Shown here piece by piece: positions 17,160 through 42,488 of a stretch of DNA of 64,000 nt. This DNA is from Candidatus Bathyarchaeia archaeon (lineage in GTDB: Archaea; Thermoproteota; Bathyarchaeia; Bathyarchaeales; Bathycorpusculaceae), in contig JBEKTQ010000007.1 of the NCBI GenBank assembly GCA_049515895.1, forward strand, positions 96,001 to 160,000. The letters run 5' to 3'. A program made the translations under genes and the position numbers. Position 1 is the stretch's first letter. Each line of letters begins with the position of its first letter. The notes beneath the pieces are model-generated. The model was given only the letters and a program-made list of their open reading frames with translations, ran no database searches and was not told the origin of the DNA.

Positions 17160-17243
17160 ATGTCAAATAACGTGTTGAAAAAAGAAAACGTTGCCTCATG
17201 GTTCCAGAGCTTCGACTACTTTTATTATAGTTATTTTCCTTAA
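17160..17243 (+). CDS. putative aromatic-amino-acid leader peptide (27 aa, MSNNVLKKENVASWFQSFDYFYYSYFP)
   Basis: Hand-translated ATG17160-TAA17243; 9 of the last 14 codons are Trp/Phe/Tyr; directly upstream of the aromatic biosynthesis operon. Confidence 0.75.
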   Translation: MSNNVLKKENVASWFQSFDYFYYSYFP

Positions 17244-17281
17244 GCCCAGAACTGGAAATTTTTTTTAGTAAAGTTCTGGGC
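17244..17281 (+). promoter_or_regulatory. attenuator-like hairpin (10-bp stem) enclosing a T8 tract
   Basis: GCCCAGAACT (17244-53) is the perfect reverse complement of AGTTCTGGGC (17272-81); the loop contains T8 (17259-66). Confidence 0.65.
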
Positions 17282-17299
17282 ACAGCATGGGTGTAGCAC

Positions 17300-18547
17300 A
17301 TGGAAAAAACTGGTCCAAACAGAACAATTGTCGTTAAATTTGGTGGTTCTAGCCTAGCGGATCACGAGAGGCTTTTAAAAGCGGTGGTTGCCGTGGTTGA
17401 TGAAGCCAAGAAGGGCACACGGGTCGCTGTCGTGGTATCGGCTATGGGTAAAACGACAGACGTTCTTATGACGACTGCGAAGAACGCTTCCAACGGGAAG
17501 CTGGAGAAGAAAGACCTTGACGACATCCTGTCGATGGGTGAGCGGACCAGCATCAGAATCTTCTCCACAGCGCTTAGAACCAATGGAGCAGAGTCCTGCT
17601 ACTTTGACCCGATCGACAGCAACTGGCCAATAATAACTGATTCAGCCTTCCAAAACGCTAACCCGATCCTCAAGGACTGCGAAAGAAACATCCGAGAATG
17701 TGTTCTGCCACTAGTGGAAAAAGGCACTATTCCCGTCGTGGCAGGTTTCTTGGGCAAAACCAAGGACGGGAAAATCACAACTCTGGGCAGAGGTGGAAGC
17801 GACACAACCGCGTTTGTCCTAGCCGAAGCGCTTGGAGCGGACGAAATTATCTTGGTGACTGACGCAGACGGCATAATGTCAGCAGACCCAAAAATGCTCT
17901 CCAACGTCGAGCGCCTCAAAGAAATCGACGTAAACACGCTGGTGGGACTCGCCGATTCTGGAGCTAAATTCATTCACAGCAAAGCACTAAAGTACAAACC
18001 CAAAAACATTAACGTCCGCGTCATCAACCATTCCCGCGGCAGCCTGTCGGAAGAAGGCACCTTAATCACAGGTGGATTGGCCACGGAACTTGACGCTGAA
18101 ATCGCGCATCCTTTCCCAGTTGCCGAAATCACCGTGATAGGAAACGGCATCTCGGCTAACCCGCAAATCATTCAGGAAATGGTTGAGGAAGCCAAGAGGC
18201 ACTCGCGTCTCTTGGGCATGTCAATGAACACAAACTCCGTAATCATTTATGTTTCAGAAGAGAAGAACTTGGAAGGGCTCTTCAACGACGTCCACAACAT
18301 AACAAAGAGCAACAAGGAAACCATCGCAATGGCCGTCAAAAAAGACCTTGTTTTCATAAAAACAAGCGGCGTCGGCTTAGAAGAGACCCACGGGATCATC
18401 GGAAAGATCAGCGAAGACCTGCGGCTCAGCGGCATAAACATTTCAGGCATACTAACAATAACATCAAGCATTCTTCTCTTTCTCGATTGGAACGAACGGG
18501 AAAAAGCCCTCAAACTAATTAAAAACTCTTTAAGGAGCGCTAAGTAA
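17300..18547 (+). CDS. lysC: aspartate kinase
   Basis: VVKFGGSS, VVSAMGKTTD, TTLGRGGSDTTA, ADP; C-terminal ACT-like region. Confidence 0.92.
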   Translation: MEKTGPNRTIVVKFGGSSLADHERLLKAVVAVVDEAKKGTRVAVVVSAMGKTTDVLMTTAKNASNGKLEKKDLDDILSMGERTSIRIFSTALRTNGAESCYFDPIDSNWPIITDSAFQNANPILKDCERNIRECVLPLVEKGTIPVVAGFLGKTKDGKITTLGRGGSDTTAFVLAEALGADEIILVTDADGIMSADPKMLSNVERLKEIDVNTLVGLADSGAKFIHSKALKYKPKNINVRVINHSRGSLSEEGTLITGGLATELDAEIAHPFPVAEITVIGNGISANPQIIQEMVEEAKRHSRLLGMSMNTNSVIIYVSEEKNLEGLFNDVHNITKSNKETIAMAVKKDLVFIKTSGVGLEETHGIIGKISEDLRLSGINISGILTITSSILLFLDWNEREKALKLIKNSLRSAK

Positions 18548-18556
18548 GGTGAAAAT

Positions 18557-19348
18557 ATGAACCAAGGAAAAACCCGAAGACTAAAAAGAATAATGCAGCA
18601 AGACAACCGCACAGTAATTGTTCCCATGGACCACGGCGTAACAGTCGGACCCATCCAGGGCTTAACCAACATGCAACAAATAATCGACCAGCTTGTCAAA
18701 GGCGGGGTTGATGCCGTGCTTGTCCACAAAGGCATCGCTAAACACACTGACGCTGGAAATGTAGGATTAATCGTAATGCTGTCTGGTATGTCAAACCTCA
18801 GCCCAAACGTAAACGGCAAAGTCCAAGTCTGCAGCGTCAAAGAAGCTATACGTTTAGGGGCAGATGCGGTTTCAGTACATGTTAACATCGGCGCGCAAGA
18901 CGAGGATAAAATGATTCAAAATCTTGGTAGCGTAGCTGACGAATGTGACGTTTACGGGATGCCATTGCTTGCGATGATGTATCCACGGGGACCCAAAATA
19001 CAGAATGAACATGCAGCCGACGTGGTTGCTCACGCCGCACGCATAGGTGCTGAACTTGGTGCGGACATTATCAAAGCAAACTTCACAGGAAACATAGAAA
19101 CCTTCAAAACCGTAGTAGAAAGCTGCCCCGTTCCGCTGGTGATCGCAGGAGGACCAAAATGCAAAACCTCCGAGGAAGTTCTGCAAACCACACGCGACGC
19201 CATTTCAGCCGGAGCAGCAGGGCTTTCCATCGGGCGCAACGTTTTCCAGCACGAAAATCCAACATTAATTGTTAAAGCGCTTTCAGCTATCGTTCATGGC
19301 AACGTAAGCGTGGAAGAAGCGCTGAAAATCGTCGGTGAAAAAGCTTGA
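18557..19348 (+). CDS. aroA': 2-amino-3,7-dideoxy-D-threo-hept-6-ulosonate (ADH) synthase, DhnA-type aldolase
   Basis: VPMDHG, MMYPRG, AELGADIIK, AGGPK, IGRNVFQ; adjacent to aroB'. Confidence 0.88.
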   Translation: MNQGKTRRLKRIMQQDNRTVIVPMDHGVTVGPIQGLTNMQQIIDQLVKGGVDAVLVHKGIAKHTDAGNVGLIVMLSGMSNLSPNVNGKVQVCSVKEAIRLGADAVSVHVNIGAQDEDKMIQNLGSVADECDVYGMPLLAMMYPRGPKIQNEHAADVVAHAARIGAELGADIIKANFTGNIETFKTVVESCPVPLVIAGGPKCKTSEEVLQTTRDAISAGAAGLSIGRNVFQHENPTLIVKALSAIVHGNVSVEEALKIVGEKA

Positions 19349-20388
19349 AGGAACTGTGGGTAGAAATTGAACCTGCGGCTTCACCGCAAGAAAAAGAAAA
19401 CTTGCTTGGCACCGCATATGAAAATGCAGATGTGGTCCTAGAAGGTACCCAAGCGAGCACCCGTAACGGCAAACTTGACGTGACATTTCTCGCCGAGCTT
19501 TCCGAGAAGAAGATTTCCCAAGCCAAAAATGAAGGCAGAAAAACCGCGGCCAAATTCAACATAACTGGGAAAGAAGACGAAAACCGCGCTGCTAAAGCGG
19601 CTGAACTGGGGGTTGATTATATAATCATCAACACGTTGGACTGGAGGGTCATTCCTCTGGAGAACTTAATTGCGAAGGCGCATGGAGGCAAAAGCAAGCT
19701 TATCGCTGAAGTTGCGACGGCACAGGACGCCAAAGTGGTTCTTGAGGCGTTGGAGCTGGGAACAGACGGTGTTCTGCTTAAAACTTCAAACCCAAATGAG
19801 CTTGCCAAAACTGTGAAGCTCGTCAAAGGGCAAATGCCTAAGGTAGCGTTGACAATAGCTAAGGTTCTGTCTATACAGCCCATCGGTACAGGAGCAAGGG
19901 TTTGCGTTGACACTGTTGATTTGATGGTTCCAGGCGAAGGAATGCTTGTCGGCTGCCAATCTGCAGGGTTCTTTTTGGTCGAGGCTGAGGTGAACGAGAA
20001 CCCATATGTGCAATCTCGACCTTTCCGAGTAAACGCTGGACCAGCATCACACTACACTTTAACGTCGCTTCAGAGTACTCGGTACCTCTCCGAACTGAAG
20101 GCTGGAGACGAAGTCTTAATCATAAACAGGGAAGGAAAAGTAAGAATAACGAACGTAGGAAGATCAAAAATCGAGTTCCGACCGCTCATCTTAATTGAGG
20201 CGCAAGCGGACGAAACAAAAATCAAAGCAATACTGCAAAACGCAGAAACCATCCGTCTCGTCACGCCAAAAGCCTCCAAACCCGTGACGGAACTCAAAGT
20301 AAGCGACGAGGTCTTGGTGCATTTGGCTGCAAAAGGGGGCAGGCACTTCGGCGTTTCCGTGCCTGAAGAAACGGTGATTGAAAGGTGA
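19345..20388 (+). CDS. aroB': 3-dehydroquinate synthase II (archaeal)
   Basis: WRVIPLENLIA, RVCVDT, RPFRVNAG, ILQNAETIRL, GRHFG. Confidence 0.95.
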   Translation: MKELWVEIEPAASPQEKENLLGTAYENADVVLEGTQASTRNGKLDVTFLAELSEKKISQAKNEGRKTAAKFNITGKEDENRAAKAAELGVDYIIINTLDWRVIPLENLIAKAHGGKSKLIAEVATAQDAKVVLEALELGTDGVLLKTSNPNELAKTVKLVKGQMPKVALTIAKVLSIQPIGTGARVCVDTVDLMVPGEGMLVGCQSAGFFLVEAEVNENPYVQSRPFRVNAGPASHYTLTSLQSTRYLSELKAGDEVLIINREGKVRITNVGRSKIEFRPLILIEAQADETKIKAILQNAETIRLVTPKASKPVTELKVSDEVLVHLAAKGGRHFGVSVPEETVIER

Positions 20389-21068
20389 CTTTGAGAATCT
20401 GCGTTTCAATCCTACCAGAAAATAGTCTTCAAGCCCTAACGCTCATCAGGAAGGCGGAAAAAGCCAAAGCAGACCTCATCGAAGTCAGGTTGGATCGTCT
20501 TGAAACGACCACACACTTGAGGGAACTTGTCCAGAGCACAAAAATCCCCCTAATAGCAACGCACAAACTGACGAGCGAAAAAGGTTTTTTCTCCGGGACA
20601 GAGGCCCAAAGGCAACAGAGCCTTCTGAACGCAGCCGAAAGTGGTTTCGAATACGTTGACGTTGACGTGTCAAGCCCAAACCGCCAAGAAACAATCGATA
20701 AACTCAAACAGTTGGGAGTTAAACCAATCGTTTCCCACCACAAATTCGATGGCACATTAAGCCGTTCCGCTATGGAGAAGGTTCTGGAGCAGGAAATCTT
20801 GTGCGGCGCCTGCATATGCAAAATCGTTGCAACCGCCAAGAAAATCGAGGATAACCTGACGGTACTCAATTTTGTCGCTTCCCATTCAAGTAAGGCTAAA
20901 CTTGTCTGTTTCTGCATGGGCGAAGTAGGTAAAGTTTCAAGGATTCTTTCACCGATGTTCGGCGCCTTCTTCACTTTTGCTTCGCTTGAACAGGGCAGCG
21001 AAACCGCGAAAGGGCAAATCTCCATAGGCGAAATGAAGGCTGCTTTCGACCTCCTAGGAGCGCCTTAA
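20385..21068 (+). CDS. aroD: type I 3-dehydroquinate dehydratase
   Basis: IEVRLD, SHH.F, CKIV, FCMGEVGKVSR, AKGQ. Confidence 0.92.
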   Translation: MTLRICVSILPENSLQALTLIRKAEKAKADLIEVRLDRLETTTHLRELVQSTKIPLIATHKLTSEKGFFSGTEAQRQQSLLNAAESGFEYVDVDVSSPNRQETIDKLKQLGVKPIVSHHKFDGTLSRSAMEKVLEQEILCGACICKIVATAKKIEDNLTVLNFVASHSSKAKLVCFCMGEVGKVSRILSPMFGAFFTFASLEQGSETAKGQISIGEMKAAFDLLGAP

Positions 21069-21069
21069 G

Positions 21070-21936
21070 ATGGCGGTTTCAGGAAAAACTAAAGTTTTCG
21101 GAGTAATCGGCGACCCTGTAGAGCACAGTCTAAGCCCGGTCATTCAGAACGCGGCGCTTGCAGCCTCGAAATTAGACTGCACATTCTTAGCCTTTAAAGT
21201 AAAATCCACAGCGGTCGGGAAAGCAATGGACGGTATGCGAGCGTTTGGCATTCAAGGGCTTAACGTTACAATGCCCCATAAAACCGCGGTTCTCAACTTT
21301 CTTGACGAAGTTCACCAGACCGCCAGGGCGCTAAAGGCAGTTAACACGGTAAAGAACGAGAGCGACAAACTCTTAGGCTTCAACACTGACGGCACCGGTG
21401 CAATGTCTGCTTTGAGAGAAAACGGCGTTGAGCCAAAAGGCAAAAAAGTAATGTTGCTTGGAGCAGGTGGTGCTGCAAGAGCTATAGCCTTCGTTCTCGC
21501 GGATCAGGTGGATGAGCTTTCAATTTTGAATCGGACAATTCAGCCAGCCGCGGAGTTAGCAGATTTAATAAAGGAAAGGTTCAACAGCAAAGTTGTTGCG
21601 TACGCTCTTTCCCCGTTAACGCTTAAGGCAAATCTAGCTGATGCTGACCTGCTGATTAACGCCACTTCAATCGGAATGAAATCGAACGCCAATAAAACCC
21701 TGATAGTCCCAAAATGGCTCAAGCCTGACTTGGCTGTGATGGACATAGTGTATGACCCGATAGAGACTAAACTAGCGAAAAATGCGAGGGCTGCGGGCGC
21801 CAAAGTGGTCAGTGGGGTTGAAATGCTGATTTATCAGGGCGCTGCGTCGTTTGAAATCTGGACTGGCAGGAAGGCGCCAATTGAAGTTATGAGGAAAGCA
21901 GCGCTTAATCACTTGCAGAAGGTGCAGAAGAGTTGA
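21070..21936 (+). CDS. aroE: shikimate dehydrogenase
   Basis: HSLSP, NVTMPHK, AVNT, NTDG, GAGGAARA, MLIYQG. Confidence 0.96.
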   Translation: MAVSGKTKVFGVIGDPVEHSLSPVIQNAALAASKLDCTFLAFKVKSTAVGKAMDGMRAFGIQGLNVTMPHKTAVLNFLDEVHQTARALKAVNTVKNESDKLLGFNTDGTGAMSALRENGVEPKGKKVMLLGAGGAARAIAFVLADQVDELSILNRTIQPAAELADLIKERFNSKVVAYALSPLTLKANLADADLLINATSIGMKSNANKTLIVPKWLKPDLAVMDIVYDPIETKLAKNARAAGAKVVSGVEMLIYQGAASFEIWTGRKAPIEVMRKAALNHLQKVQKS

Positions 21937-22802
21937 CGGGGCAAGCTTCAGCTGTAGCACATGGCGCGGCGACGATTGTTAATGCAATGGCGCTCGGCAA
22001 AGGCGCCGCTTTCGGAGTTGACTTGTTCACGAAAGCGAAAGTGGAATTGACTGAAGAGCCAACAGTTGTCAAGGCAGAGATAGCTTCTGACCCGAAAGAA
22101 AGCAACGTTCTGGTGAAGAAAACCGTTGAGCGGGTTCTCCAGCGTTTCAAGATGGAAAAGAGATTCGGCGCTAAAGTTAAAACTTGGTCAAACATCCCCA
22201 TCGCCAAAGGGCTCAAAAGTAGCAGTGCAGCAGCAAACGCGGTCGCCCTGGCAACCACGGCGGCGCTGGGGAAAACGCTGGATGACTTGGAAATTATCAA
22301 CTTAGGTGTAGACTCCGCTTTCGACGCGAAAGTGACGGTTACTGGCGCTTTTGACGATGCATGCGCATCATATTTAGGCGGGATAATTGTCACTGATAAC
22401 TTAGAACGGAAAATCGTGGGGCGGTTGGCGCTACCCGAAGATCTAGTTGTGCTTTTTCTTGTTCCTCCCCAAAAAGCTTATTCTGCTGACTCAAACGTTG
22501 AAAGGCTGAGAACTGTGAAGCCGCTTGTTCAAGTTGCTTACGAGAAGGTTTTAGGGGGTAGGTTCTGGGAGGCTTTGACGCTTAATGGTTTAATTTACTC
22601 CTCTGTCTCTGGGTATGATCCCTCGATCGCGATTGACGCGTTGGCGGCTGGAGCAGTGGCGGCTGGGCTTTGCGGTAAAGGACCGGCAGTTACGGCAGTC
22701 ACAACTAAAGACAAGGTTGATTCGGTGAAGGCTGCATTTCAAAAATTCGACGGCATAGTCTTGCAAGCCCGCTTCAACAAGGAAAAGGCAACGGTGATTT
22801 AG
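21933..22802 (+). CDS. aroK: archaeal GHMP-family shikimate kinase
   Basis: GAATIVNA, IPIAKGLKSSSAA, TVTGAFDDA. Confidence 0.95.
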   Translation: MTGQASAVAHGAATIVNAMALGKGAAFGVDLFTKAKVELTEEPTVVKAEIASDPKESNVLVKKTVERVLQRFKMEKRFGAKVKTWSNIPIAKGLKSSSAAANAVALATTAALGKTLDDLEIINLGVDSAFDAKVTVTGAFDDACASYLGGIIVTDNLERKIVGRLALPEDLVVLFLVPPQKAYSADSNVERLRTVKPLVQVAYEKVLGGRFWEALTLNGLIYSSVSGYDPSIAIDALAAGAVAAGLCGKGPAVTAVTTKDKVDSVKAAFQKFDGIVLQARFNKEKATVI

Positions 22803-22804
22803 CA

Positions 22805-24109
22805 ATGGCGGATGTAATCGTTAAAAAGTCTGAAAAATTAAGCGGCGAAGTATGCGCTCCCCCTTCAAAATCTTACACTCAGCGAATGCTCATCGCAGCG
22901 TCTCTCTCAAACGGGACTGGAAAAGTTTCAAATCCGCTTCTTTCCGAAGATACAGAAGCCACTTTGCGCGCGATAACCGCATTAGGTGCAGAAACGAGTT
23001 TTGAGGAAAACTGCTGGGTCATTAAAGGCGCTGTGCCTATTCAAAACGCGAAAGCACCAATTGATTGCGGAGAATCCGGAGCTACAATACGTTTCATGAT
23101 ACCTGTGGCTGCCCTGGCAAGTGACCCCTCAATCCTGATCTTCCGTGGGTCTCTTGACCGCAGACCCATCGAACCTTTGATTAAAAGCCTAGACGACTTG
23201 GGCGCAAAGGTTCACTCGAAAAAATTCGGCGACAAAGACGCCGTGGTTGTTGAAGGCGGGGGAATTCTTGGAGGACAAACCTCTATTTCAGGTGGTGTAA
23301 GTTCGCAGTTTATTTCGGGGTTGCTTTTTGCGTGCCCGATGGCTAAGGTTGAAACTGAAATAGTCTTCGAATCCCCATTGGAGTCCGCTGACTATGTTAA
23401 GATGACTTTGGATGTGCTTTCGAAGCATGGAATCAGAGTGGACGTTTATGGCAATTTCGAACGCATCTTAATCCCAGCCAACCAAACCTTCAAAACCATT
23501 GACTGCCGGGTGCCTGGCGACTTTTCTTCAGCCGCATTTCTTTTTGCAGCCGCAGCTGTCACCAAGTCGAAAGTGCAGGTAAACGATCTTGATTACGGGA
23601 GCGTTCAAGGCGACAAAGCAATTCTGAGCATCCTAAAACAGATGGGTGTAGCCGGCAAAGTGTGTGAAAACAGCGTTGAAATAGACGGCACGGGTAGCTC
23701 GCTTGAGCCATTAAATCTTGATGCAAAAAACATCCCTGACCTTGTCCCGGTATGCGCAGCTTTGGCATGCTTCGCAAATGGGACCTCGAAAATAACAGGC
23801 GCGCAAAGGCTCAGGCTCAAGGAATCAGATAGGCTGCAATCCCTCTATAGTGAGTTCACAAAGATGGGGGCAGAAATTGAAGTAGATTCGAACAGTCTAA
23901 CCGTGAGGGGCACCTCTGCTTTGCACGGCGCCACAATTGACCCTCATAACGACCATCGTATAGCGATGGCTTGCGCGATTGCAGCTCTATGCGCGGAAAA
24001 CCAAACTATTATTCAAAATGCCCAGTGTGTCAGAAAGTCTTATCCACAGTTCTTCACTCATCTGAAACAGTTAGGAGCGGAAATTGTTGGCGGGAAATTC
24101 GACGGGTAA
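22805..24109 (+). CDS. aroA: 3-phosphoshikimate 1-carboxyvinyltransferase (EPSP synthase)
   Basis: PPSKSYTQR, ESGATIRF, SSQFISG, RLKESDRL, DHRIAMA, KSYP. Confidence 0.96.
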   Translation: MADVIVKKSEKLSGEVCAPPSKSYTQRMLIAASLSNGTGKVSNPLLSEDTEATLRAITALGAETSFEENCWVIKGAVPIQNAKAPIDCGESGATIRFMIPVAALASDPSILIFRGSLDRRPIEPLIKSLDDLGAKVHSKKFGDKDAVVVEGGGILGGQTSISGGVSSQFISGLLFACPMAKVETEIVFESPLESADYVKMTLDVLSKHGIRVDVYGNFERILIPANQTFKTIDCRVPGDFSSAAFLFAAAAVTKSKVQVNDLDYGSVQGDKAILSILKQMGVAGKVCENSVEIDGTGSSLEPLNLDAKNIPDLVPVCAALACFANGTSKITGAQRLRLKESDRLQSLYSEFTKMGAEIEVDSNSLTVRGTSALHGATIDPHNDHRIAMACAIAALCAENQTIIQNAQCVRKSYPQFFTHLKQLGAEIVGGKFDG

Positions 24110-25202
24110 AGAATTCACAGTTACCACTTTCGGCGAAAGCCACGGCAAAGTCGTCGGCGTCATAGTGGACGGTTGCCCTGCAGGTTTGCCTCTTTCTGAA
24201 GCAGACATTCAAGCGGAGCTGGACAGACGCGTACCAGCAGATACCCGAATCGTTTCTGCAAGAATCGAAAGAGACGTGCCCAAAATTCTTTCGGGCGTTT
24301 TCAACTCGGTTACCACTGGCGCTCCAATAGCCGTGACGGTTGAGAACAAGGATGTTGACTCCGCGGATTATGAGGCAATTAAAAATCTGCCAAGACCTGG
24401 GCATGCAGACTACCCCGCAAGCGTTAGGTACGGCGGCTTTAACGATTACCGCGGAGGCGGACGCTTCAGCGGTAGAGTCACTGTGGCGTTAATAATGGCC
24501 GGAGCCATAGCGAAAAAACTTCTGAGCCGTTTCGACGGGGACGTTTTAGCCTACACAAGAACCATAGGCAAAATCAGAAGCGACAAGAAGTTTAGCACTG
24601 AAGAAATCCGAAAGAACCGCTACGTGGCCTCTTCTAGATGCCCCGATTTGGCATGCGCAGGAAGAATGGAGGAAGCCATTGTTGACGCGCGAAAAGAGGG
24701 CGAAAGCCTCGGCGGCGTAGTTGAATGCCTTGCTCTGAACATACCAGTGGGGGTTGGGGACCCAATGTTTGATTCGCTCGACGCCGAGTTAGCCAAGGCA
24801 CTGTTTAACGTTCCTGCAGTCAAGGCAGTTGAATTCGGATTGGGCTTCGAACTCATCAAGATGAAAGGCTCAGAAAGCAATGACGCCTACGTCATGCAAA
24901 ACGGGAAAGTTGCTACTTCAACCGATAACATGGGCGGAATCTTAGGCGGCATATCCAACGGCATGCCAATCATCATGCGGGTAGCAATTAAACCGACGCC
25001 TTCCATCGGCCTAGAGCAGAAAACCGTTAACCTGACCACTATGGAAGATGCATCTCTCACAGTTAAGGGCAGACATGATCCATGTGTCGTTCCTAAAGCC
25101 GTGCCAGCCGTAGAAGCCGCAGTAGCCATAACGCTAGCTGACCACATGATTCGTTCTGGCTTCATACCGAAAGTCTTGGAGAGGAAAAAAATTGTTGGAT
25201 GA
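24084..25202 (+). CDS. aroC: chorismate synthase
   Basis: FGESHG, PRPGHAD, GGGRFSGR, KPTPSI, GRHDPC. Confidence 0.97.
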   Translation: MLAGNSTGKEFTVTTFGESHGKVVGVIVDGCPAGLPLSEADIQAELDRRVPADTRIVSARIERDVPKILSGVFNSVTTGAPIAVTVENKDVDSADYEAIKNLPRPGHADYPASVRYGGFNDYRGGGRFSGRVTVALIMAGAIAKKLLSRFDGDVLAYTRTIGKIRSDKKFSTEEIRKNRYVASSRCPDLACAGRMEEAIVDARKEGESLGGVVECLALNIPVGVGDPMFDSLDAELAKALFNVPAVKAVEFGLGFELIKMKGSESNDAYVMQNGKVATSTDNMGGILGGISNGMPIIMRVAIKPTPSIGLEQKTVNLTTMEDASLTVKGRHDPCVVPKAVPAVEAAVAITLADHMIRSGFIPKVLERKKIVG

Positions 25203-33662: not shown

Positions 33663-33706
33663 TTTTCTATTCTCTTCTATCAGTTGCCTTTTTTCTGTTG
33701 ATAACT

Positions 33707-33722: not shown

Positions 33723-33766
33723 TTTAAGAAAGCTTGAAGTTAAGGGTTTCCGTGCTCGGAGAGGAT

Positions 33767-34279: not shown

Positions 34280-35985
34280 TAGTAATCACCTTTCTGTTGG
34301 GGTAAACCGCAGCCTGGAGGCACAAAGGGCACAACGTCCTGCTCCGAGCCTATAGGCACATCGATCACCGTGGTAACATTACTGTTCAATGCTGTCTTAA
34401 CAGCTTTGTGGAATTCCTCGATTGATGTTGCCCGCAGTCCTTGCGCTCCGTAAGCTTCCGCCAGCTTAACGAAGTCTGGTGTTCTGCCTAGGTTAACCGC
34501 CATGTAGCGTCGTTTGTAGAGCATTCTTTGCCACTGGGCAACCATTCCTAGTACCGAATTGTTCAGCACTATGACAGTAACCGGAATCTTTTCGGTAACG
34601 GAGCAGGCGAGTTCTTGCTCGCTCATTATGAAGCTGCCGTCGCCCGCTATGTCTACGACTGGTCTGTCTGGGCAAGCGACTTTTGCGCCGATTGCCGCTG
34701 GGAAGCCGAAACCCATCGTTCCTAAGCCTCCTGAACTGATGAACGATCTCGGCTTCAAAGCTTGGAAGTAAAGCGCCGACCACATTTGGTTTTGCCCAAC
34801 TTCCGTAGTGACTATCGCGCTTTCAGGAAGAAGGTTCCTTAACTCAGTCAACAATGCCTTCGGCACTATGTCTCTTGGTCTCTCTTTCATCAGTGGACTC
34901 AGCTGTTCTTTTGCTTCTTTAACTCGCTTTGCCCAAGCGTTGCCTTCACCTTTACGCAGTTTTTCGCTTAATGCGGCAAGCAAAAGATTCAGGGCAGCTT
35001 TTGCGTCGCCGACTATGGGTACATCAACCTCAATGTTCTTGCCGATTTCTGCCTCGTCAATGTCTATATGGATTTTTTTAGCTTCATGCGCAAAAGAGTC
35101 CAAATTTGCTGTTGCACGGTCGGAGAATCTTGTTCCGACAGCTAGCAGAACGTCAGCTTCGCACATGAGCCTGTTCGCCGCTGGGTTTCCATGCATTCCT
35201 ATGCTACCTACCGACAGAGGGTGACATTCCGGGAACGAGCCTTTACCCATGAATGTTGTAGCGACTGGTGTCATCAGCAGGTCAGACATCCGCATGATTT
35301 CGTCTGAAGCGTTCGAGATTATGACTCCGCCGCCTGCAAGGATGATCGGACGCTCCGCTTTCGCAAGCAAACTGGCGGCTTCGCTAATCTTGCATAAGTC
35401 TATCTCAATCATTGACTTGTAACCAAAGGCTTCGATCTTGTCAGTTACCTCCACTTCGCCAGTGTCTGACTGCACGTTTTTTGGCAAGTCAATCAGAACC
35501 GGTCCCGGTCTACCCGTAGACGCTATGTAGAACGCCGTGTTAACGATAGTTGGAATCTCTGCAACAGTTCTTGGCTGGAAATTGTACTTAGTGATTGGGG
35601 TTGTGATTCCGATTATGTCGGCTTCTTGGAACGCGTCTCTGCCGATTAAGTATGAAGTGTTTACGCCTGAAGAGGGAACCTGCCCTGTCAATGCTACTAT
35701 GGGAGAAGAATCCATGTATGCGTTCGCTATCCCGGTAACCAAGTTTGTAGCTCCGGGCCCTGAGGTTGCCATGCAAACTCCTACTCGTCCGCTGGCTCTG
35801 GCATAGCCTTCGGCTTCATGCGCCGCGCATTGTTCGTGCCTGGCAAGGATGTGCCTAATTTTTGCGTTGCCGCACAAAGCGTCATACACAGGAAGGATTG
35901 CTCCGCCTAAGATGCCGAAGATCACGTTCACGTTTTGGCGTTCAAGAGATTCTAGGAGTGCTTTTGCACCAGACATTTTAGTCAT
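34279..35985 (-). CDS. ilvB: acetolactate synthase large subunit
   Basis: RHEQ, TSGPGATN, FQEAD, SGGLGTMGFG, GDGSF. Confidence 0.96.
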   Translation of the reverse strand: MTKMSGAKALLESLERQNVNVIFGILGGAILPVYDALCGNAKIRHILARHEQCAAHEAEGYARASGRVGVCMATSGPGATNLVTGIANAYMDSSPIVALTGQVPSSGVNTSYLIGRDAFQEADIIGITTPITKYNFQPRTVAEIPTIVNTAFYIASTGRPGPVLIDLPKNVQSDTGEVEVTDKIEAFGYKSMIEIDLCKISEAASLLAKAERPIILAGGGVIISNASDEIMRMSDLLMTPVATTFMGKGSFPECHPLSVGSIGMHGNPAANRLMCEADVLLAVGTRFSDRATANLDSFAHEAKKIHIDIDEAEIGKNIEVDVPIVGDAKAALNLLLAALSEKLRKGEGNAWAKRVKEAKEQLSPLMKERPRDIVPKALLTELRNLLPESAIVTTEVGQNQMWSALYFQALKPRSFISSGGLGTMGFGFPAAIGAKVACPDRPVVDIAGDGSFIMSEQELACSVTEKIPVTVIVLNNSVLGMVAQWQRMLYKRRYMAVNLGRTPDFVKLAEAYGAQGLRATSIEEFHKAVKTALNSNVTTVIDVPIGSEQDVVPFVPPGCGLPQQKGDY

Positions 35986-36082: not shown

Positions 36083-36133
36083 TCAAAGAATAAGTACCCG
36101 ACGATCCCAGCTATTGAGGTGACGATCCCTCAT
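36083..36133 (-). CDS. putative branched-chain amino-acid leader peptide (16 aa, MRDRHLNSWDRRVLIL)
   Basis: Hand-translated; GAGG SD upstream of the ATG; last four codons GTA CTT ATT CTT (V-L-I-L); stop 97 nt before ilvB. Confidence 0.6.
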   Translation of the reverse strand: MRDRHLNSWDRRVLIL

Positions 36134-36177
36134 TTTCGTGCCTCTTAAATACCACGTACCTTAAAGGTATCATCCAA

Positions 36178-36398: not shown

Positions 36399-36584
36399 AT
36401 GTGCGAATTTAACGTCATCCTTGATGGGAAAACCCAGTTTAGAGACGTAATTTACGTTAAAGTTGAAGGTGACAACGTCACAGTCAGGAACATTTTGGGC
36501 GAATCAAAAGAGTTCAAAGGCTGCAAAATCCTCGAAGTCGACGTTAATTACACAAGGCTAGTACTCTCCTCCATAAAATCATAA
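36399..36584 (+). CDS. CooT-family nickel-binding protein
   Basis: 61 aa starting MC, with the ILGE..E...I.EVD pattern of this family. Confidence 0.75.
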   Translation: MCEFNVILDGKTQFRDVIYVKVEGDNVTVRNILGESKEFKGCKILEVDVNYTRLVLSSIKS

Positions 36585-36764: not shown

Positions 36765-37892
36765 CTAAGCGCTTGGGTTTGTGTTGTTATGAAGCTCTGA
36801 CAACCTCAGCAGTGTCTCTTTGTAGACTTGGATCGCGTTCAGGTACTCACCAACGTCAATGTGCTCATCCAAAGTGTGGTCAAGGCGGGAGTTGCCTGGT
36901 CCATAAGTGACTATTGGCAGGTTCATAGCTTTACCCAGAATATTCATGTCGCCAGTCCCAGTTTTACGCAGAAGCGTCGCTGGCTTGTTCAACACTTTTC
37001 GGACAGATGAAGAAAAAACATGCACCAGCGGAGAAGCCTTGTTCACCTCGAAAGGCTCCACGGTGTCCAGAACAGTTGCTTTCACAGAAATTTTCGGGTT
37101 AGCGGCTTGGTACTTCGCGATAATCTTCTCTATCTGTTCAAAAACCTGATTCGTAGAAAACTGGATTGGCACCCGCACGTCAATGTTCATTTCAGCTTCA
37201 AAAGGAACAACCGACATCGGTCTGCCGCCTGCAACCTTAACCAAACAAGCCGTGACCGCATTGAAAGGGCTTTCCGAAGGATCAAGCGAAGGATAAGAAG
37301 AAGCATTCTTGATTTGCTCCCAAACCTCATACGCTTTCTCCAATGCATTATCATAAAGCCACGGCGTTGAAGAATGCCCCGTCTCAGTTTTGCAAACGAT
37401 TTTCAGCTGGATCTGACCCTTGTACGCAACTGTTATATTTTCAACGCCGCTGGGTTCACCGAAAATGGCGTAGTCAGCCTTAATACCCTGAGTGATAAGG
37501 TGTTTAACGCCTCGGCTGGTCGCTTCCTCCTCGACTACGCTTGCAACCAAGATTTTGCCTTTAAACCCAGGTTCCTTCGCAGCGGAAACCGCAGCCATGA
37601 TCATAGCGGCAAGCGGACCCTTCGCGTCTACAGCGCCTCGAGCGTAGATTTTGCCTTCTTCAATTCGAAGCGGCAAATGCCCAGCCACTGTATCCATGTG
37701 ACCGCACATCAGGATGACGGGTTGGCCTTCGCCGACTACGCCAATTACGTTTCCGATTGCGTCTTTGCCAACCTCAAAACCCATCTTTTTCATTTCAACC
37801 TCTAAAAAGTTGGCGGCATCCTCCTCTTTTCCTGACGGGCTATAAATGCCCAAGAGGTTAGTTAGAAACCGTACTGCTTCTTGCTCGCTCAT
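36765..37892 (-). CDS. lysK: [LysW]-lysine/ornithine hydrolase (M20 peptidase)
   Basis: GHMDTV, GRGAVDAKG-like motif, VEEE, GEPS, TGTGDMN, DHTLDEH; lys cluster. Confidence 0.9.
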   Translation of the reverse strand: MSEQEAVRFLTNLLGIYSPSGKEEDAANFLEVEMKKMGFEVGKDAIGNVIGVVGEGQPVILMCGHMDTVAGHLPLRIEEGKIYARGAVDAKGPLAAMIMAAVSAAKEPGFKGKILVASVVEEEATSRGVKHLITQGIKADYAIFGEPSGVENITVAYKGQIQLKIVCKTETGHSSTPWLYDNALEKAYEVWEQIKNASSYPSLDPSESPFNAVTACLVKVAGGRPMSVVPFEAEMNIDVRVPIQFSTNQVFEQIEKIIAKYQAANPKISVKATVLDTVEPFEVNKASPLVHVFSSSVRKVLNKPATLLRKTGTGDMNILGKAMNLPIVTYGPGNSRLDHTLDEHIDVGEYLNAIQVYKETLLRLSELHNNTNPSA

Positions 37893-39072
37893 TCTCTTCG
37901 TCACCTAACACTTCATCTAGCACAGTCACTATTCGGTCAATCTGCTTCTTCTGAATTACCAAAGGCGGCAACAGGCGGACAACTGTCCTTCCAGCATCTA
38001 AAACTAAAACACCTTTCGCGGCCGTCTTCAAAATCACGTTCAGAACATCGAAGCGTAGCTCCATGCCAAGCATTAATCCTAAGCCGCGAACTTCTTTGAC
38101 GATTTTATGTTTTGCCTGTATTCCTTCCAGTTCAGTCTTGAAGTAATGACCCATTTTCGAGGCGCACTCAGTCAAGTTTTCTTCCACAAGCGCATCTATC
38201 GCAGCGCATCCAGCTGCACAAACCAGCGGACTGCCGCTAAAAGTAGTTGAGTGCTCACCAACTTTAAGGGCTGACATAATATTTTTCTTTGCAACGGTTA
38301 TGCCTATGGGCAAACCACCAGCAAATGGCTTAGCCAAACACATCACATCAGGTATAACACCCCAGTTTTGGCAACCAAAAAGCTTGCCCGTGCGCCCGAA
38401 GCTTGTTTGAACTTCATCAAAAATCAGTAAAACATTCTTCTCGTCGCAGATCCTCCGCACCTCTTGCAGGTAGCCTTCAGGTGGAACCCGGACACCGCCC
38501 TCACCCCGAATAGGCTCCATAAGAAACGCTCCTGTTTTCTCGCTAATAGCTTCACGGATTTTATCGGCATTATCAGGGGCGACATGCTTGATTTCTGGAA
38601 CCAGAGGCATGAAAGGCTCACGGTACTTTTTGTCCCATGTTGCAGAAAGCGCACCCATGGTCTTGCCATGAAATGCACCCATCAAAGCGATAATTTCTGG
38701 TTTGCCTGTGTATTTGCGGGCGAGTTTAATGGCGCATTCAACTGATTCAGCTCCGCTATTTGACAGAAACACTTTGTCTAAGCCTTTAGGAGTTATGTGA
38801 ACAAGTTTCTCGACGAATTCTGCGCGTTTGTCGTTGTAGTAACAGCTGTGGCAGGTGATAAGCTGCTCAGCCTGAGCTTGGATTGCAGCGACAACTTTTG
38901 GGTGACAGTGCCCTAGCAGGGCGACACCGTAACTGGTTGAGCAGTCAATGTATTCTTTGCCTTTAATGTCCCAGACAAGCGCGCCTTTGCCCTTTGTCAA
39001 AACGACTGGTTTTTTGGAGAAAACGTTTGCCATGAACCGCGTTTCAACATCAATTATTTCTTGTTCATTCAC
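37858..39072 (-). CDS. lysJ: [LysW]-aminoadipate/glutamate semialdehyde transaminase
   Basis: NSGAESVE, FHGKT, DEVQTSFGRTG, LAK, HSTTF. Confidence 0.9.
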   Translation of the reverse strand: MNEQEIIDVETRFMANVFSKKPVVLTKGKGALVWDIKGKEYIDCSTSYGVALLGHCHPKVVAAIQAQAEQLITCHSCYYNDKRAEFVEKLVHITPKGLDKVFLSNSGAESVECAIKLARKYTGKPEIIALMGAFHGKTMGALSATWDKKYREPFMPLVPEIKHVAPDNADKIREAISEKTGAFLMEPIRGEGGVRVPPEGYLQEVRRICDEKNVLLIFDEVQTSFGRTGKLFGCQNWGVIPDVMCLAKPFAGGLPIGITVAKKNIMSALKVGEHSTTFSGSPLVCAAGCAAIDALVEENLTECASKMGHYFKTELEGIQAKHKIVKEVRGLGLMLGMELRFDVLNVILKTAAKGVLVLDAGRTVVRLLPPLVIQKKQIDRIVTVLDEVLGDEENERARSSTVSN

Positions 39073-39874
39073 CAGTTATCACTGTACCAACCTTATGATT
39101 CAATACTGAACTTATAGGTTCATTTCCGGTGCCCGCCGTGACTAAAACCTCTTTGACTCCTTGACTTAATGCCTCCAACGCCGCGTGCACCTTAGTACTC
39201 ATGCCTTGCCCAATGCTAGATAAAACCTCTTTAACCTCGGTGGCAGCAATTTTAGGAACACACTCGCCTCTAAGCATTAAGCCCTGCACGTCTGTAAGAA
39301 GAATTAAGCGGTCTGCCTTCAATGCGCCAGCGATTATCGCCGCTGTTCGGTCGCCATCCACATTGAGCGGTTCCCAGTCCTGGCTAATCGCAATAGGGGT
39401 CACAATCGGCACGTACCCCTTATCAAGCAGAAGATTAAGAAGCTCGGCGTTTACCGAAGTAATTTTTCCTGTGTAACCGCCGTCGATAACTTTTTTGCGT
39501 CCCCGTTCGTCAACGGCGATAAGTTTTTTTTTCCGTTCAGCCTTTAGGGTGGCTGCATCCAACCCCGTTAATCCCACTGCTGGTATGCCTTGGCTTTGAA
39601 GGGCTAGAACGATTTGTTTGTTGATTTTGCCAGCCATAACCATGGTGTAAATCTCAATGGTTTCTTTGTCGGTGTAGCGGCTTCTGAATCCTTCAGGTGA
39701 AACAATGAATTTTTGTTCTTTTCCGAGTTTTGAGGCTATTTCTGTGACTTCTACGCCGCCACCGTGGACGAGCACGACTTTATTGGTTTTGGCTACTTCT
39801 TTTAGGTCAGCGACTAAATTTTGAGATGCGCCCTCTTTGAGTATGCTTCCACCCATCTTGATAACAAGCAGCAT
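39065..39874 (-). CDS. lysZ: [LysW]-aminoadipate/glutamate kinase
   Basis: IKMGG, VHGGG, SP.G..SRYT, GGYTGKI, NVDGDR. Confidence 0.93.
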   Translation of the reverse strand: MLLVIKMGGSILKEGASQNLVADLKEVAKTNKVVLVHGGGVEVTEIASKLGKEQKFIVSPEGFRSRYTDKETIEIYTMVMAGKINKQIVLALQSQGIPAVGLTGLDAATLKAERKKKLIAVDERGRKKVIDGGYTGKITSVNAELLNLLLDKGYVPIVTPIAISQDWEPLNVDGDRTAAIIAGALKADRLILLTDVQGLMLRGECVPKIAATEVKEVLSSIGQGMSTKVHAALEALSQGVKEVLVTAGTGNEPISSVLNHKVGTVITGE

Positions 39875-39878
39875 GGTA

Positions 39879-40934
39879 TCACATCGGATGGAATCCAGTG
39901 CTCTTCAGGCCAGTGGTCTCATCAATGCCCAGCTGTATATTCATGCATTGCACGGCTTGGCCTGATGCGCCCTTGGTCATGTTGTCGATTGCAGAGAAAA
40001 GCAAAAGACGATTCGCGTGTTCATCAATCTCGAAGCCGATATCGCAAAAGTTTGTGCCTAAAGTAACTTTCGGGTCGGGCAACTGATAAGGTCCCTTCTG
40101 ATACTTCACTAAGCGCACGAAGGGTTCATTCCCGTACATTCCCCGAAGAACTCTCCAAAGGTCTTTGTTCTCCAACTTCTGTTTAGGAAAAGTATGAATA
40201 GTCGCCAGAATCCCCCGGACCATATTGACTGCATGTGGGGTAAACGAGATTTTAACTGGGTCGCTGCTCAACGCGTTAAGTTCTTGTTCAACCTCGGCAG
40301 TGTGACGGTGACCAGCTACTTGGTAGGGCCGTACTCCACTGAAGCGTTCAGGATGATGAGAGGAAATAGACGGTTTGCTGCCTCCGCCTGAAGAACCAAC
40401 CTTGAGATCTACAACAATTTTGTCTTTATCAACCAGCCCAGCCTTCACTATAGGTGCTAAACCCAAAATGGCGGATGTTGCCATGCAGCCTGGGCAACCG
40501 ATTAACTTCGCGTTTTTTATTTCTTCACGGTGAAGTTCGGGCAACCCATATGCGGCGCCTTTTAGCATTTCAGGGTGAGCATGCTTCCAACCATAATAAG
40601 TTTCGTAATCAGCTGGGTTTTTGAGGCGGAAATCAGCGCTCATATCGATTACCTTTAAGCCCGCCTCCAAAAGTTTGGGAACAAGATTCACTGAACCCCC
40701 ATGCGGCGTAGCTGTGAATATCAGATCGCAGTTTTTCTGCAACTCAGCCACGTCTAAGGGCACAAATTTCAACTGGGTTAAACCCCGCAGGTTCGGATGG
40801 ACGTTGAAAACGAATTCTCCTGCGCTTTGCCGCGATATAACCATGGTTACCTCTGCTTGGGGATGAAGAAGCAGCAGCCGCAGGAGTTCACTGCCAACGT
40901 ACCCCGAACCACCGATTATTCCAACTCGCACCAT
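39879..40934 (-). CDS. lysY: [LysW]-aminoadipate/glutamate phosphate reductase
   Basis: GGSGYVG, VHPNLRG, DMSADFR, GCPGCMAT, HHPER, IDNMTKGASGQA. Confidence 0.93.
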   Translation of the reverse strand: MVRVGIIGGSGYVGSELLRLLLLHPQAEVTMVISRQSAGEFVFNVHPNLRGLTQLKFVPLDVAELQKNCDLIFTATPHGGSVNLVPKLLEAGLKVIDMSADFRLKNPADYETYYGWKHAHPEMLKGAAYGLPELHREEIKNAKLIGCPGCMATSAILGLAPIVKAGLVDKDKIVVDLKVGSSGGGSKPSISSHHPERFSGVRPYQVAGHRHTAEVEQELNALSSDPVKISFTPHAVNMVRGILATIHTFPKQKLENKDLWRVLRGMYGNEPFVRLVKYQKGPYQLPDPKVTLGTNFCDIGFEIDEHANRLLLFSAIDNMTKGASGQAVQCMNIQLGIDETTGLKSTGFHPM

Positions 40935-40959
40935 TTTTCATTCTTCCTTTTTCATTTGA

Positions 40960-42144
40960 TTAATGGTCTATTAGGCTTTGAGCAGCCTTCAGTAGGGGAA
41001 CCGCAACGTTAAGCCCCGTTGCGAGTCTAGTATTCTCCCAGAACTCGGGACACGAATTTGATTCATGAAACACAAGAGCGCTTTTATTTTTTTCTACGCT
41101 CTCTTCAATGATGTTTTTGATATTTTCGTAAGAGTCACTGTTCGCGTAAATCTGGAATGCTTTTTCCAGCTTTGTGGTCCAAACTTGAAAATCAGTTAGG
41201 CGCATCTGATCTTGCTTAACTTTCTGAACGGGCAAAAACGCTTGTCCAGCCTTATCTAACTGGCCCTTAAGGTAAACATCATCAACATTTTTGTTTTCCT
41301 GATGGTTCACCATTGCATCCAATGCGAAAATCCATGCTTCGCTGCCTTTGCCCAACGTCTTGCCACATTTCACCGCAAGTTCCTGAATTGTTTTGGGTAG
41401 CTTGGCACCGAAAACTAAGTTGCCCAAGAAAGTGTTGGTTCTAAAATCTTTAAAACCGGCTCTTGCCATCGCAGTTGGGTAACAGACAGGCTGCTTGCCT
41501 TTTTCTTTTGAGACGATAATCCGCAGGTCGTAAAACCACTTTTCAACCAGTTCCTGCGCGACTACGCCAACTGGATTGATGATTGACGGTTTTGTTTCCT
41601 TTATGTTACTGATAAGCTCCTCAGTATTTTTCGACAGCATGATCATCTTGCCATGCGTCCCAGCGTCAGCTTTAATAACAATGCCGTCTGACAGGGGGAT
41701 TTCTTGCTGGATTAGATCTGCTATGTCTTTCTCATTATGGATTTCTTGCCCATTCTTGAGGGTGTCAGTTGCGTCGCATGGCACATAAACTGTCTTGGGA
41801 ATTGGCAAGCCTTCCTTCCACAGCTTCAGCAAAGTGCGCAGTTTGCTGTAGCAGACAAATTCGGTTTGAGACGTGTTCAAAGTTTTTTTTCCAAGCTGTT
41901 CCATCATGTAAGAAGCTTGGAGGCGACGGTTTTTGCTTTGCGCGCGGTTAAGCACGACCGCGACGTCTTTGACTATTCTCGTATAGTCTTTGCCTTTAGT
42001 TTTAGCATTGAAACCGTCTTTGAAAATCGAGATAGCGATTTTTCTGAAGGGCAGAAAAGTCAAATCAACATCTAATTGTTGAGCAGTTAGTTTGATGCCG
42101 TTTTCATCGTTTTCGGACCGTTCATACAAAAGAGCAATGCTCAT
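40960..42144 (-). CDS. lysX: divergent LysX/ArgX (RimK-like ATP-grasp) LysW ligase with large insertion
   Basis: LNR, K.RT, P.T, K...G.HG, QE, DLR, FRTN, ExN..PEF; lies between lysW and lysY. Confidence 0.7.
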   Translation of the reverse strand: MSIALLYERSENDENGIKLTAQQLDVDLTFLPFRKIAISIFKDGFNAKTKGKDYTRIVKDVAVVLNRAQSKNRRLQASYMMEQLGKKTLNTSQTEFVCYSKLRTLLKLWKEGLPIPKTVYVPCDATDTLKNGQEIHNEKDIADLIQQEIPLSDGIVIKADAGTHGKMIMLSKNTEELISNIKETKPSIINPVGVVAQELVEKWFYDLRIIVSKEKGKQPVCYPTAMARAGFKDFRTNTFLGNLVFGAKLPKTIQELAVKCGKTLGKGSEAWIFALDAMVNHQENKNVDDVYLKGQLDKAGQAFLPVQKVKQDQMRLTDFQVWTTKLEKAFQIYANSDSYENIKNIIEESVEKNKSALVFHESNSCPEFWENTRLATGLNVAVPLLKAAQSLIDH

Positions 42145-42214
42145 CGCTTCTCTGCCTCCACCAAAAAATATTCAAGAAACTGAGTCAAATGAAGGCTTAG
42201 CGGTGAATAACTGG

Positions 42215-42421
42215 TTATTCTCCCCAGTCTTCCCCTTCAATTGTTAACTCTTGAAGGTCTACGCATCCGCCTTTAACCTGTTTAACTTCGAGTTCAAGTC
42301 CGCAACCCGGGCAACTGAGGATTTCTCCTTTCTCTGCGTCAACTGGAACATCAAGCTCGGCGTCACAGTCAGGGCATTTTGCTTTCATGTTTTGGGAATT
42401 TGAATTTACAGGTTTAATCAT
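42215..42421 (-). CDS. lysW: amino-group carrier protein LysW (start 42421 or 42388)
   Basis: CPDC...CPGCG zinc ribbon and invariant C-terminal EDWGE. Confidence 0.96.
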   Translation of the reverse strand: MIKPVNSNSQNMKAKCPDCDAELDVPVDAEKGEILSCPGCGLELEVKQVKGGCVDLQELTIEGEDWGE

Positions 42422-42488
42422 TTTTTATTCGTCACTTTATTTTTTATAGGAAATGACTTTTTCATTAATTCAATACTAAATTTAAACA

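Follow-up and report, generated by a model that had tools for sequence, protein, structure and literature searches.

We describe candidate regulatory elements upstream of amino-acid biosynthesis operons in a 64,000-nucleotide (nt) stretch of DNA (hereafter, the window) from a metagenome-assembled genome (MAG) of Bathyarchaeia. The window contains an aromatic (aro) operon, an ilv-leu-pheA operon and a lysine operon headed by lysW. A preliminary description of this DNA had proposed that the first two, and possibly the third, are preceded by a small open reading frame (ORF) rich in codons for the end product of the pathway, as part of a lineage-wide attenuation system based on leader peptides. 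The three small ORFs do exist (17160-17243 on the plus strand, and 36133-36083 and 42465-42418 on the minus strand), but comparison with related genomes suggests that they differ in kind. With reasonable confidence, we think that two different ribosome-read sensors, one at aro and the other shared by ilv, trp and his, stand beside one ordinary, protein-regulated promoter at lysW. We also lean, less firmly, towards the fuller proposal that a modular, amino-acid-specific +1 frameshifting cassette controls trp, his and ilv/leu in Bathyarchaeia, in enzyme-fused, OR and AND arrangements, beside a leader rich in Phe and Tyr.

Conserved cassettes upstream of ilvB, trpE and hisG

The ilv mini-ORF (Table 1), which ends in VLIL, had been described as a V/L/I leader. 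This tail is at chance level, as 2075 of 3000 dinucleotide shuffles of the ORF's own intergenic region reach four I/L/V residues in six, and it varies among relatives (VLIL, VQLF, VHFY, VPRN). The remainder of the ORF is conserved. Its Shine-Dalgarno (SD) element and ATG or GTG start are present at 29 of the 30 places in our ilvB locus set, and the exception (L056) lacks the element, with coding-like sequence reaching ilvB. The first 13 codons are also conserved and form a direct repeat, each copy of which consists of GGGAT, CGT, one further codon and then a CTC (Leu) codon in the first copy or a GTA (Val) codon in the second. Leu at codon 6 and Val at codon 13 are both found in 23 of 23 loci of the genus. 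In order-level relatives the Leu unit reads ...CGT TTC CTC, and outside the genus either the Val unit precedes the Leu unit or the Leu unit stands alone. The ilv ORF is real, but its product-matched part consists of single Leu and Val codons within these cassettes and not of a peptide rich in branched-chain residues.

The reading frames downstream of the cassettes are strongly asymmetric. Counted from leader codon 6 to the first gene, as in the frame statistics for trpE and hisG below, the stop codons in frames 0/+1/+2 of the ilvB loci number 108/0/87, so that the +1 frame is open in all 29. The resulting +1 ORF (46-62 codons) ends between 6 nt before and 11 nt after the ilvB start. In the window it is closed upstream by the TGA in A-TGA-GG and has no canonical start codon, and in 16 of the 29 loci it contains no ATG, GTG or TTG at all. 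In these 16, a ribosome can enter it only after starting at the leader ATG and changing frame. The ORF begins with an Ile/Val-rich segment (GIVTSIAGIVGY...), because the GGGATCGTC repeat reads Gly-Ile-Val in this frame. Two further blocks, PR..SE and LD[ED]S[IL], show moderate conservation as peptide or as nucleotide sequence. These features may contribute a second layer of sensing or an RNA structure.

The preliminary description had called for a scan of other amino-acid operons. Elsewhere in the genome, we located trpE, hisD and hom and read the DNA before them, which yielded cassettes at trp and his, but neither a cassette nor a cognate-rich ORF upstream of the hom/thr cluster. The trpE gene lies on contig 8 and hisG (Pfam HisG) on contig 2, and each follows an SD and a mini-ORF that starts like that of ilv, with TGG as codon 6 at trpE and CAT as codon 6 at hisG. 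Relative to the leader ATG, trpE occupies the +1 frame in 23 of 24 unique loci, which have 11 different spacer lengths (stops 41/1/52). No canonical start codon separates the leader from the conserved N-terminus of TrpE in several loci that we read, and those TrpE residues that precede the first in-frame canonical start can be aligned with N-termini of solved TrpE/PabB proteins, for example with 1qdl_A from residue 7. The one exception among the loci, L134, has lost the TGG codon and has its leader ATG in frame with trpE. This natural in-frame fusion indicates that the leader ATG is the true start of trpE. The putative shift site is NUU-UGG-C, mostly CUU-UGG-C.

The trp cassette pattern was found at 77 places, spread over 70 of the 401 Bathyarchaeia genomes (within the genus, 33 of 40), versus 15 places for the reversed pattern. 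We read 47 of these 77 places (30 as listed, and 17 chosen among class-level and second hits). In 26 of the 47 the downstream gene is trpE, with a frame-0 ORF of 7-24 codons and a +1 ORF of 464-505 codons, in families that include f7, f17 and f31; the remaining 21 are not trpE. Two groups of loci differ in what follows the cassette. In family f35 (L221:1501-1942, L222 and L220), a trp-type cassette (MGNAFW...) precedes a +1 ORF of 134-146 codons that is LAGLIDADG-like (Pfam PF14528, E 1.7e-8), which may represent a Trp-codon frameshift before a homing-endonuclease-like gene or may be due to chance. In family f31, the mini-ORFs of L254 and L255 (MGNCFWRS... and MRNWFWRS...) carry a trp-type cassette with short +1 ORFs of 17-21 codons, and could be a Trp sensor of the bridging type before another gene.

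At hisG, 28 of 30 loci have the leader. All 28 contain a second unit in the +1 frame, made up of GGCGAT or GGGGCGAC, 3 nt, NUU and CAT, and in all 28 a stop codon follows this unit within 0-4 codons. The codon before the second CAT is GTT, CTT, ATT or TTT, and its UU before C is constant. Here it is the +2 frame that is kept open: stops number 121/105/2 over the 28 loci, the +2 frame has none in 26 of 28, and in all 28 the +2 ORF ends between 10 nt before and 11 nt after the hisG start. We also noticed an inverted repeat, AAGACAC ... GTGTCTT, just upstream of the SD of the his mini-ORF (G000 contig 2, ~152880-152930; L122 and L154). It is conserved, as judged by eye, in most loci of the genus and may be a further structural element of the leader.

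The units share a common anatomy. The sensor codon is always cognate to the pathway (W, H, H, L and V). In every unit, an SD-like GGRAU(C) or GGCGAU, complementary to the 3′ end of 16S rRNA (GGAUCACCUCCU), lies 3 nt before the codon that would occupy the P site when the sensor codon is in the A site. This P-site codon is slippery in most units, being NUU_U at trp and NUU_C at his in all loci read, and NGG_G in the Val unit of ilv (CGG, or TGG in L044, so that NGG-G is retained), but the Leu unit of the genus, with CAC_C, fails in this respect. After a +1 slip, the NUU_U, NUU_C and NGG_G sites can hold two of three base pairs. The amino acid encoded at the P site varies (V/L/I/F, or R/W) while NUU or NGG is kept, which is the signature of a slippery site. 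The genome encodes tRNAs Leu-GAG, Ile-GAU, Val-GAC, Phe-GAA and Arg-CCG, and anticodons with G34-A35 serve CUU, AUU, GUU and UUU. A scan of the same genome for the start cassette returned about 30 upstream hits. We scanned with Pfam ten downstream genes other than those of ilv, trp and his, and found no amino-acid biosynthesis gene among them (GNAT/FemAB, an Lrp fragment, a glycosyltransferase, an AMP-binding enzyme, TrmB, DUF4337, and four without a Pfam match); these ten hits are treated as chance. Within this scope, ilv, trp and his are the only operons of the genome to have the cassette.

Proposed mechanism of the cassettes

Our best reading of these patterns, which were all obtained by comparing sequences, is amino-acid-sensing +1 frameshifting of the RF2/Ty1 type at ilv, trpE and hisG. 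As long as the sensor codon is decoded fast, the ribosome would keep to frame 0 and terminate after 10-34 codons. When the cognate aminoacyl-tRNA is scarce, the ribosome would shift by +1 at the sensor codon. Since the sensor codon would be slow only under such a shortage, the shift would become an amino-acid sensor. At trp, the +1 frame is TrpE itself, and the enzyme would be made only after a shift. At ilv, the ribosome probably slips by one base at the Leu or the Val codon when that amino acid is short, and a shift at either unit (OR logic) would take it to the ilvB start. Translation in the +1 frame would end there, leading to termination-reinitiation and/or to protection of the transcript from termination. 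At his, two successive shifts, one in each His unit (AND logic), would be needed to reach the frame that runs to hisG. We infer that the sensor codon is slow under starvation, that shifting occurs and rises in this condition, and that expression gains when ribosomes reach the start of the first gene.

A Phe/Tyr-rich leader upstream of the aro operon

The aro leader is the ORF for which the preliminary description holds best. Not one of 3000 shuffles reaches the nine aromatic residues in 14 that are found at its C-terminal end. When 6006 small ORFs that lie before crude gene calls across the whole genome are scanned for composition, the leader ranks only about 27th, amid many low-complexity ORFs, so composition alone does not single it out and conservation has to decide. 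The earlier argument, which relied on composition matches alone, therefore does not hold.

To assess conservation, we used 24 genomes of the genus and 3 distant genomes, all of which encode an orthologue of the downstream aspartate kinase, plus 56 loci from named MAGs. Among these, 75 loci have an aspartate kinase identity of at least 64%, and 65 of them match the pattern of a conserved 5′ box, corresponding to 60 distinct sequences. (The 5′ box pattern is all that the other ten failed; the ORF and the hairpin can be seen in L002 and L068, for instance.) The Phe/Tyr-rich C-terminus aligns in 60 of the 60 distinct sequences. Among relatives, the Phe/Tyr run gains or loses entire codons and swaps F, Y, W and H for one another (as in ...SFDYYFYYYHFP, ...SFDYGFYYFGYFP and ...SFEYGFYYWFYN), a pattern expected of selection on composition and not on a particular peptide. 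Three order-level relatives, whose aspartate kinases are 51-59% identical, carry different Phe/Tyr-rich mini-ORFs with different hairpins after them.

RNAalifold on the 60 distinct sequences gives two helices, P1 and P2, and no alternative pairing. P1 has seven pairs, which are canonical in 59-60 of 60 sequences. P2 is a hairpin of 9-10 bp that the leader's stop codon abuts, or precedes by a few bases, in 59 of 60 sequences, and double compensatory changes affect two of its nine pairs (4 of 60 sequences at one pair, 6 of 60 at the other). Its motif occurs once in the genome. A T8 run (17259-17266) lies within the P2 loop, and a loop run of at least five T, 10-20 nt after the stop codon, is present in 44 of 53 sequences. 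One sequence, L105 (CAVYHV010000017.1), is the sole aro leader whose stop is replaced (by CAA), so that its ORF continues through P2; a natural mutation or an error of sequencing may explain this. We considered P2 as a palindromic operator for a dimeric regulator, and set this idea aside as less likely because the spacing of the arms ranges from 12 to 22 nt among relatives, which favours an RNA hairpin. Upstream, a TATA-like box is found in relatives at the same distance, and probably serves as a promoter with a transcript start near 17141-17146.

No frame is kept open between the aro leader stop and aspartate kinase (stops 70/36/22), and the frame of aspartate kinase relative to the leader is random (19/18/16). 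This locus thus serves as a negative control for the frame statistics above, and the leader is a free-standing ORF, not one of the frameshifting or coupling type. Ribosome stalling on its Phe/Tyr codons is well supported as the sensing step by the conservation described. A pioneer ribosome would translate the 27 codons, of which the last 10-11 are mostly Phe and Tyr, and when charged tRNA-Phe or tRNA-Tyr is scarce it would stall in the Phe/Tyr run, short of the stop codon. For the output step, we favour a switch between P2 and the oligo-U tract. A ribosome at the stop codon would mask the 5′ arm of P2 and leave the oligo-U tract, an archaeal termination signal, exposed, turning the operon off. 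With a ribosome stalled upstream, P2 would fold around the U tract and the operon would be on.

Probable ordinary control of lysW

The K-rich ORF upstream of lysW, which had been proposed, with some reserve, as a Lys leader, does not hold up. It is moderately unusual in composition (14 of 3000 shuffles reach six Lys in 14), in a segment that is locally A-rich. Of the 23 loci read, 7 retain the ORF with its ATGA overlap, and elsewhere the start, the frame or the stop differs. Several of the lys ORFs listed in relatives start at an ATG inside the TATA region. We therefore rejected this ORF as a leader peptide, and the 5′ untranslated region (UTR) of lysW also contains no frameshift cassette.

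In Sulfolobus, the Lrp-family regulator LysM controls the lysWXJK operon. As in that system, a LysM-like Lrp/AsnC gene is located divergently next to lysW, and a conserved box lies at the lysW promoter. The regulator here scores 163.6 bits with the NCBIfam model NF040947, below its curated cut-off of 180, and its binding and lysine response are predictions. The simplest reading of the sequence is that lysW is under ordinary transcriptional control, since this LysM-like regulator adjoins it.

Alternative explanations

The preliminary description had in mind classical transcription attenuation, in which stalling at cognate codons selects between a terminator and an antiterminator, at all three operons. 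We consider this unlikely. The aro leader fits the sensing half of such a mechanism, and a T-run follows its stop codon. In the genus, however, this run lies within the P2 loop and none follows the 3′ arm, nor does a hairpin followed by a U-run occur downstream of any leader. We also found no conserved alternative pairing, and an Rfam scan of the whole window at gathering score returned no matches, and thus no curated leader family. The variable ilv tail and the unconserved lys ORF also argue against attenuation, which moreover does not explain why one frame is kept open up to the first gene at ilv, his and trp, or why trpE has no start codon of its own. At ilv, the frame statistics point to +1 frameshifting instead. 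The broader idea of a lineage-wide system matched to pathway products is supported in altered form: elements of this kind are also found at trpE and hisG and in other families of Bathyarchaeia, but a peptide rich in the cognate residues is found at aro only.

The elements upstream of ilvB, trpE and hisG might, secondly, be structured RNAs or protein-binding sites, such as riboswitches, T-box-like RNAs or operators, with the frames being incidental. The ilv and his cassettes are very highly conserved at the nucleotide level, third codon positions included, and contain direct repeats (GGGATCGTC twice and GATTGCGTTCAT twice), and base pairing between a sensor codon and a tRNA anticodon is conceivable. 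We nonetheless find this explanation quite improbable, as it would not account for 0-2 stops in one specific frame versus 41-121 in the other two, or for 11 trp spacer lengths that differ by multiples of 3 only. In addition, the start codon alternates between ATG and GTG with an SD at the proper distance, trp codon 4 varies freely while NUU-UGG-C is fixed, and L134 is an in-frame fusion. There is also no Rfam hit in the window, to the T-box family (RF00230) or any other. The leaders are 130-210 nt long, and RNAalifold predicts short helices only; on the ilv leader, these pair the leader SD with a downstream CCUCU box and GAGG with CCUC, and yield no convincing switch.

A similarly small probability attaches to independent initiation, whereby the long upstream ORFs would start at non-canonical or alternative codons and act as constitutive coupling upstream ORFs (uORFs), and TrpE would have a non-AUG start, with no frameshift involved. 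This explanation gains some force from the his +2 frame, which in the genus has two in-frame codons, GTG at -10 and TTG at +8, where translation could start without a shift, and from family f7, in which some trp leaders have, at codon 4, an ATG or GTG that belongs to the +1 frame. In the order-level his loci, however, a stop lies directly upstream and the +2 frame has no early start. The closed ilv +1 ORF and the trp loci that lack a canonical start before the conserved N-terminus are likewise difficult to reconcile with it. It leaves unexplained the cognate identity of the sensor codon, the second His unit with its shifted frame and stop, and the L134 fusion. Finally, errors of assembly or sequencing, or pseudogenes, would be conceivable at a short T run in MAGs, but we regard them as having a negligible chance of being the cause, given that 23 of 24 trpE loci are broken at the very same codon, as are 26 further loci drawn from several families and sequencing projects, that T3 is too short for a typical homopolymer error, and that the downstream ORFs are intact.

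Several considerations weigh against amino-acid-sensing frameshifting and against the proposed aro switch. The comparative counts overstate independence, because most of the relatives are close kin. The possible early starts in the his +2 frame could make a shift dispensable there. An SD and a start codon of its own precede or open each of ilvB and hisG, so that the dependence of these genes on the upstream ORFs is a prediction. The P-site codon of the Leu unit, CAC, re-pairs poorly in the +1 frame (CAC_C), and the near-invariant nucleotides of the ilv and his cassettes could also be compatible with an RNA or protein-binding motif. That the SD-like element stimulates +1 shifting on archaeal ribosomes is assumed by analogy to RF2 of bacteria. 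At aro, P1 shows G.U changes only and no double compensatory changes, and is thus without covariation. In constrained folding of six aro sequences with a ribosome placed at the stop codon or 3, 6 or 9 codons upstream, no consistent change was seen in how accessible the aspartate kinase SD is. If termination happens while the U tract is being transcribed, P2 cannot act.

Relation to known systems

In Escherichia coli, pheL, trpL and hisL belong to the class of bacterial leader-peptide attenuators of amino-acid operons. Like these, the aro leader is a short 5′ ORF that is rich in codons for the end product, conserved, and followed by a stable hairpin. Unlike them, it is found in Archaea, its U-run lies in the hairpin loop and not after it, its stop codon abuts the hairpin, and neither a conserved terminator/antiterminator alternative nor an Rfam leader match was found. 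Archaeal termination itself differs from bacterial termination, in that it uses oligo-U and the factor FttA/aCPSF1. (pheL is discussed in PMC3082878.)

The cassettes resemble the frameshift site of prfB, the gene for RF2, whose spacer is also 3 nt. As at prfB, trpE has a short frame-0 ORF followed by a functional +1 ORF, a CUU_U site, an SD-like element upstream, and an A-site codon followed by C. According to the account in PMC5009743, the prfB site combines CUU_U with an internal SD as a stimulator and a slow A-site codon followed by C, and is both sensor and effector of a feedback, as the trpE shift would be. The slow codon in the cassettes is a sense codon for the amino acid of the pathway, whereas in prfB it is a stop codon that the product of the gene itself reads, and the ribosome is archaeal. 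At ilv and his, moreover, the shifted frame is not an enzyme but a bridging uORF that ends at the start of the first gene, and more than one unit is arranged in series, with Leu or Val at ilv and His followed by His at his. A second parallel is found in yeast, where Ty1 and ABP140 use a +1 frameshift at the 'hungry' codon in CUU_AGG_C (also in PMC5009743). The trp heptamer CUU_UGG_C follows almost the same logic: as in Ty1, the P-site Leu tRNA would slip to UUU as long as the tRNA for the A site is scarce, and both sites have GGC as the next +1 codon. The tRNA in Ty1 is constitutively rare, unlike in the cassettes, where limitation would come from the supply of the amino acid, making the site a regulatory sensor.

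Very little is known of how archaea sense the supply of amino acids through translation. Full-text literature searches, which covered few subscription journals, found no paper about archaeal leader peptides or amino-acid-sensing frameshifts. For frameshifting of the starvation or 'hungry codon' type that yields useful trans-frame proteins, a 2016 recoding review states that "no examples are known" (PMC5009743), and a 2021 review gives, for cellular genes of archaea, one programmed frameshift only, a -1 frameshift in fucA1 (PMC8211752). If the proposed reading is correct, the cassettes would be the first regulators in nature to rely on hungry-codon frameshifting, and the first case of programmed +1 frameshifting in cellular genes of archaea. 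At ~18 nt, such a cassette would also be a very compact sensor for the charging of a single tRNA, suited to logical combination, and would account for gene callers truncating or mis-starting trpE in these genomes. The cassettes and the Phe/Tyr leader would jointly make translation-coupled regulation in archaea directly testable.

Features and gene order of the window

The coordinates of the elements and of the surrounding genes are collected in Table 1.

Table 1. Elements and genes discussed, in positions of the window
Feature	Position	Strand	Remarks
TATA-like box GCTTATATTTT	17112..17122	+	~25 nt upstream of conserved 5′ box/P1
Helix P1, 5′ arm (GGTTCGAAGC)	17146..17155	+	directly before leader ATG; overlaps AGGT SD-like element
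Aromatic leader ORF	17160..17243	+	27 codons + TAA; W/F/Y = 9 of last 14 residues
Helix P1, 3′ arm (GCTTCGAC)	17209..17216	+	RNAalifold; Ser-Phe-Asp codons just before Phe/Tyr run
Helix P2, GCCCAGAAC(T) ... (A)GTTCTGGGC	17244..17281	+	begins at base after leader stop
Aspartate kinase, aro operon gene 1	17289..18547	+	SD GGGTG 17289-17293, ATG 17300; NCBIfam NF005159, E 7e-112
ADH synthase, DHQ synthase II, aroD, aroE, archaeal shikimate kinase, aroA, aroC	18557..25202	+	NCBIfam scan
Aminotransferase, prephenate dehydrogenase, glutamine amidotransferase	end at 28066	+	downstream of aroC; NCBIfam scan
ilvB-ilvN-leuC-leuD-leuB-leuA-pheA operon	28531..35985	-	NCBIfam scan
ilv +1-frame ORF, 46 codons	35989..36129	-	ends TGA 35991-35989, 3 nt before ilvB ATG (35985)
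ilv mini-ORF, 16 codons, frame 0	36083..36146	-	SD AAGAGG 36146-36141, ATG 36133, TGA 36085-36083; tail VLIL
Val cassette TGG GAT CGT CGG GTA	36095..36109	-	sensor GTA 36097-36095, C next
Leu cassette AGG GAT CGT CAC CTC	36116..36130	-	SD-like GGGAT, 3-nt spacer, P-site CAC, sensor CTC 36118-36116
CooT-family small gene	36399..36584	+	limit of ilv upstream region; Pfam PF10133, E 2.5e-10
lysX-Y-Z-J-K	36765..42144	-	downstream of lysW; NCBIfam scan
lysW, 68 codons	42215..42421	-	SD AAGTGA, start ATGATTAAA (42421), SD and start conserved; Pfam PF21344
K-rich ORF, 15 codons, 6 Lys	42418..42465	-	conserved A-rich 5′ UTR and SD of lysW; ATGA overlap with lysW start
Conserved box TTGTAACAAATTAGTCACAATGTTTAAA and TATA upstream of lysW	42481..42508	-	genus alignment; candidate regulator site
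LysM-like Lrp/AsnC regulator	42671..43081	+	divergent from lysW; NCBIfam NF040947, E 2e-48

The aro operon begins with an aspartate kinase paralogue of its own; other aspartate-kinase-like genes of this genome are at 42479-43636 of contig 10 (39% identity) and 163495-164484 of contig 7 (32%). The archaeal ADH-synthase route uses aspartate semialdehyde, which would fit an aspartate kinase dedicated to the aro operon and suggests that this enzyme serves the pathway under separate regulation. Between the convergent aro and ilv-leu-pheA operons, we also observed an ORF of 122 amino acids (28159-28527) with a TfoX N-terminal domain (Pfam PF04993, E 9e-12).

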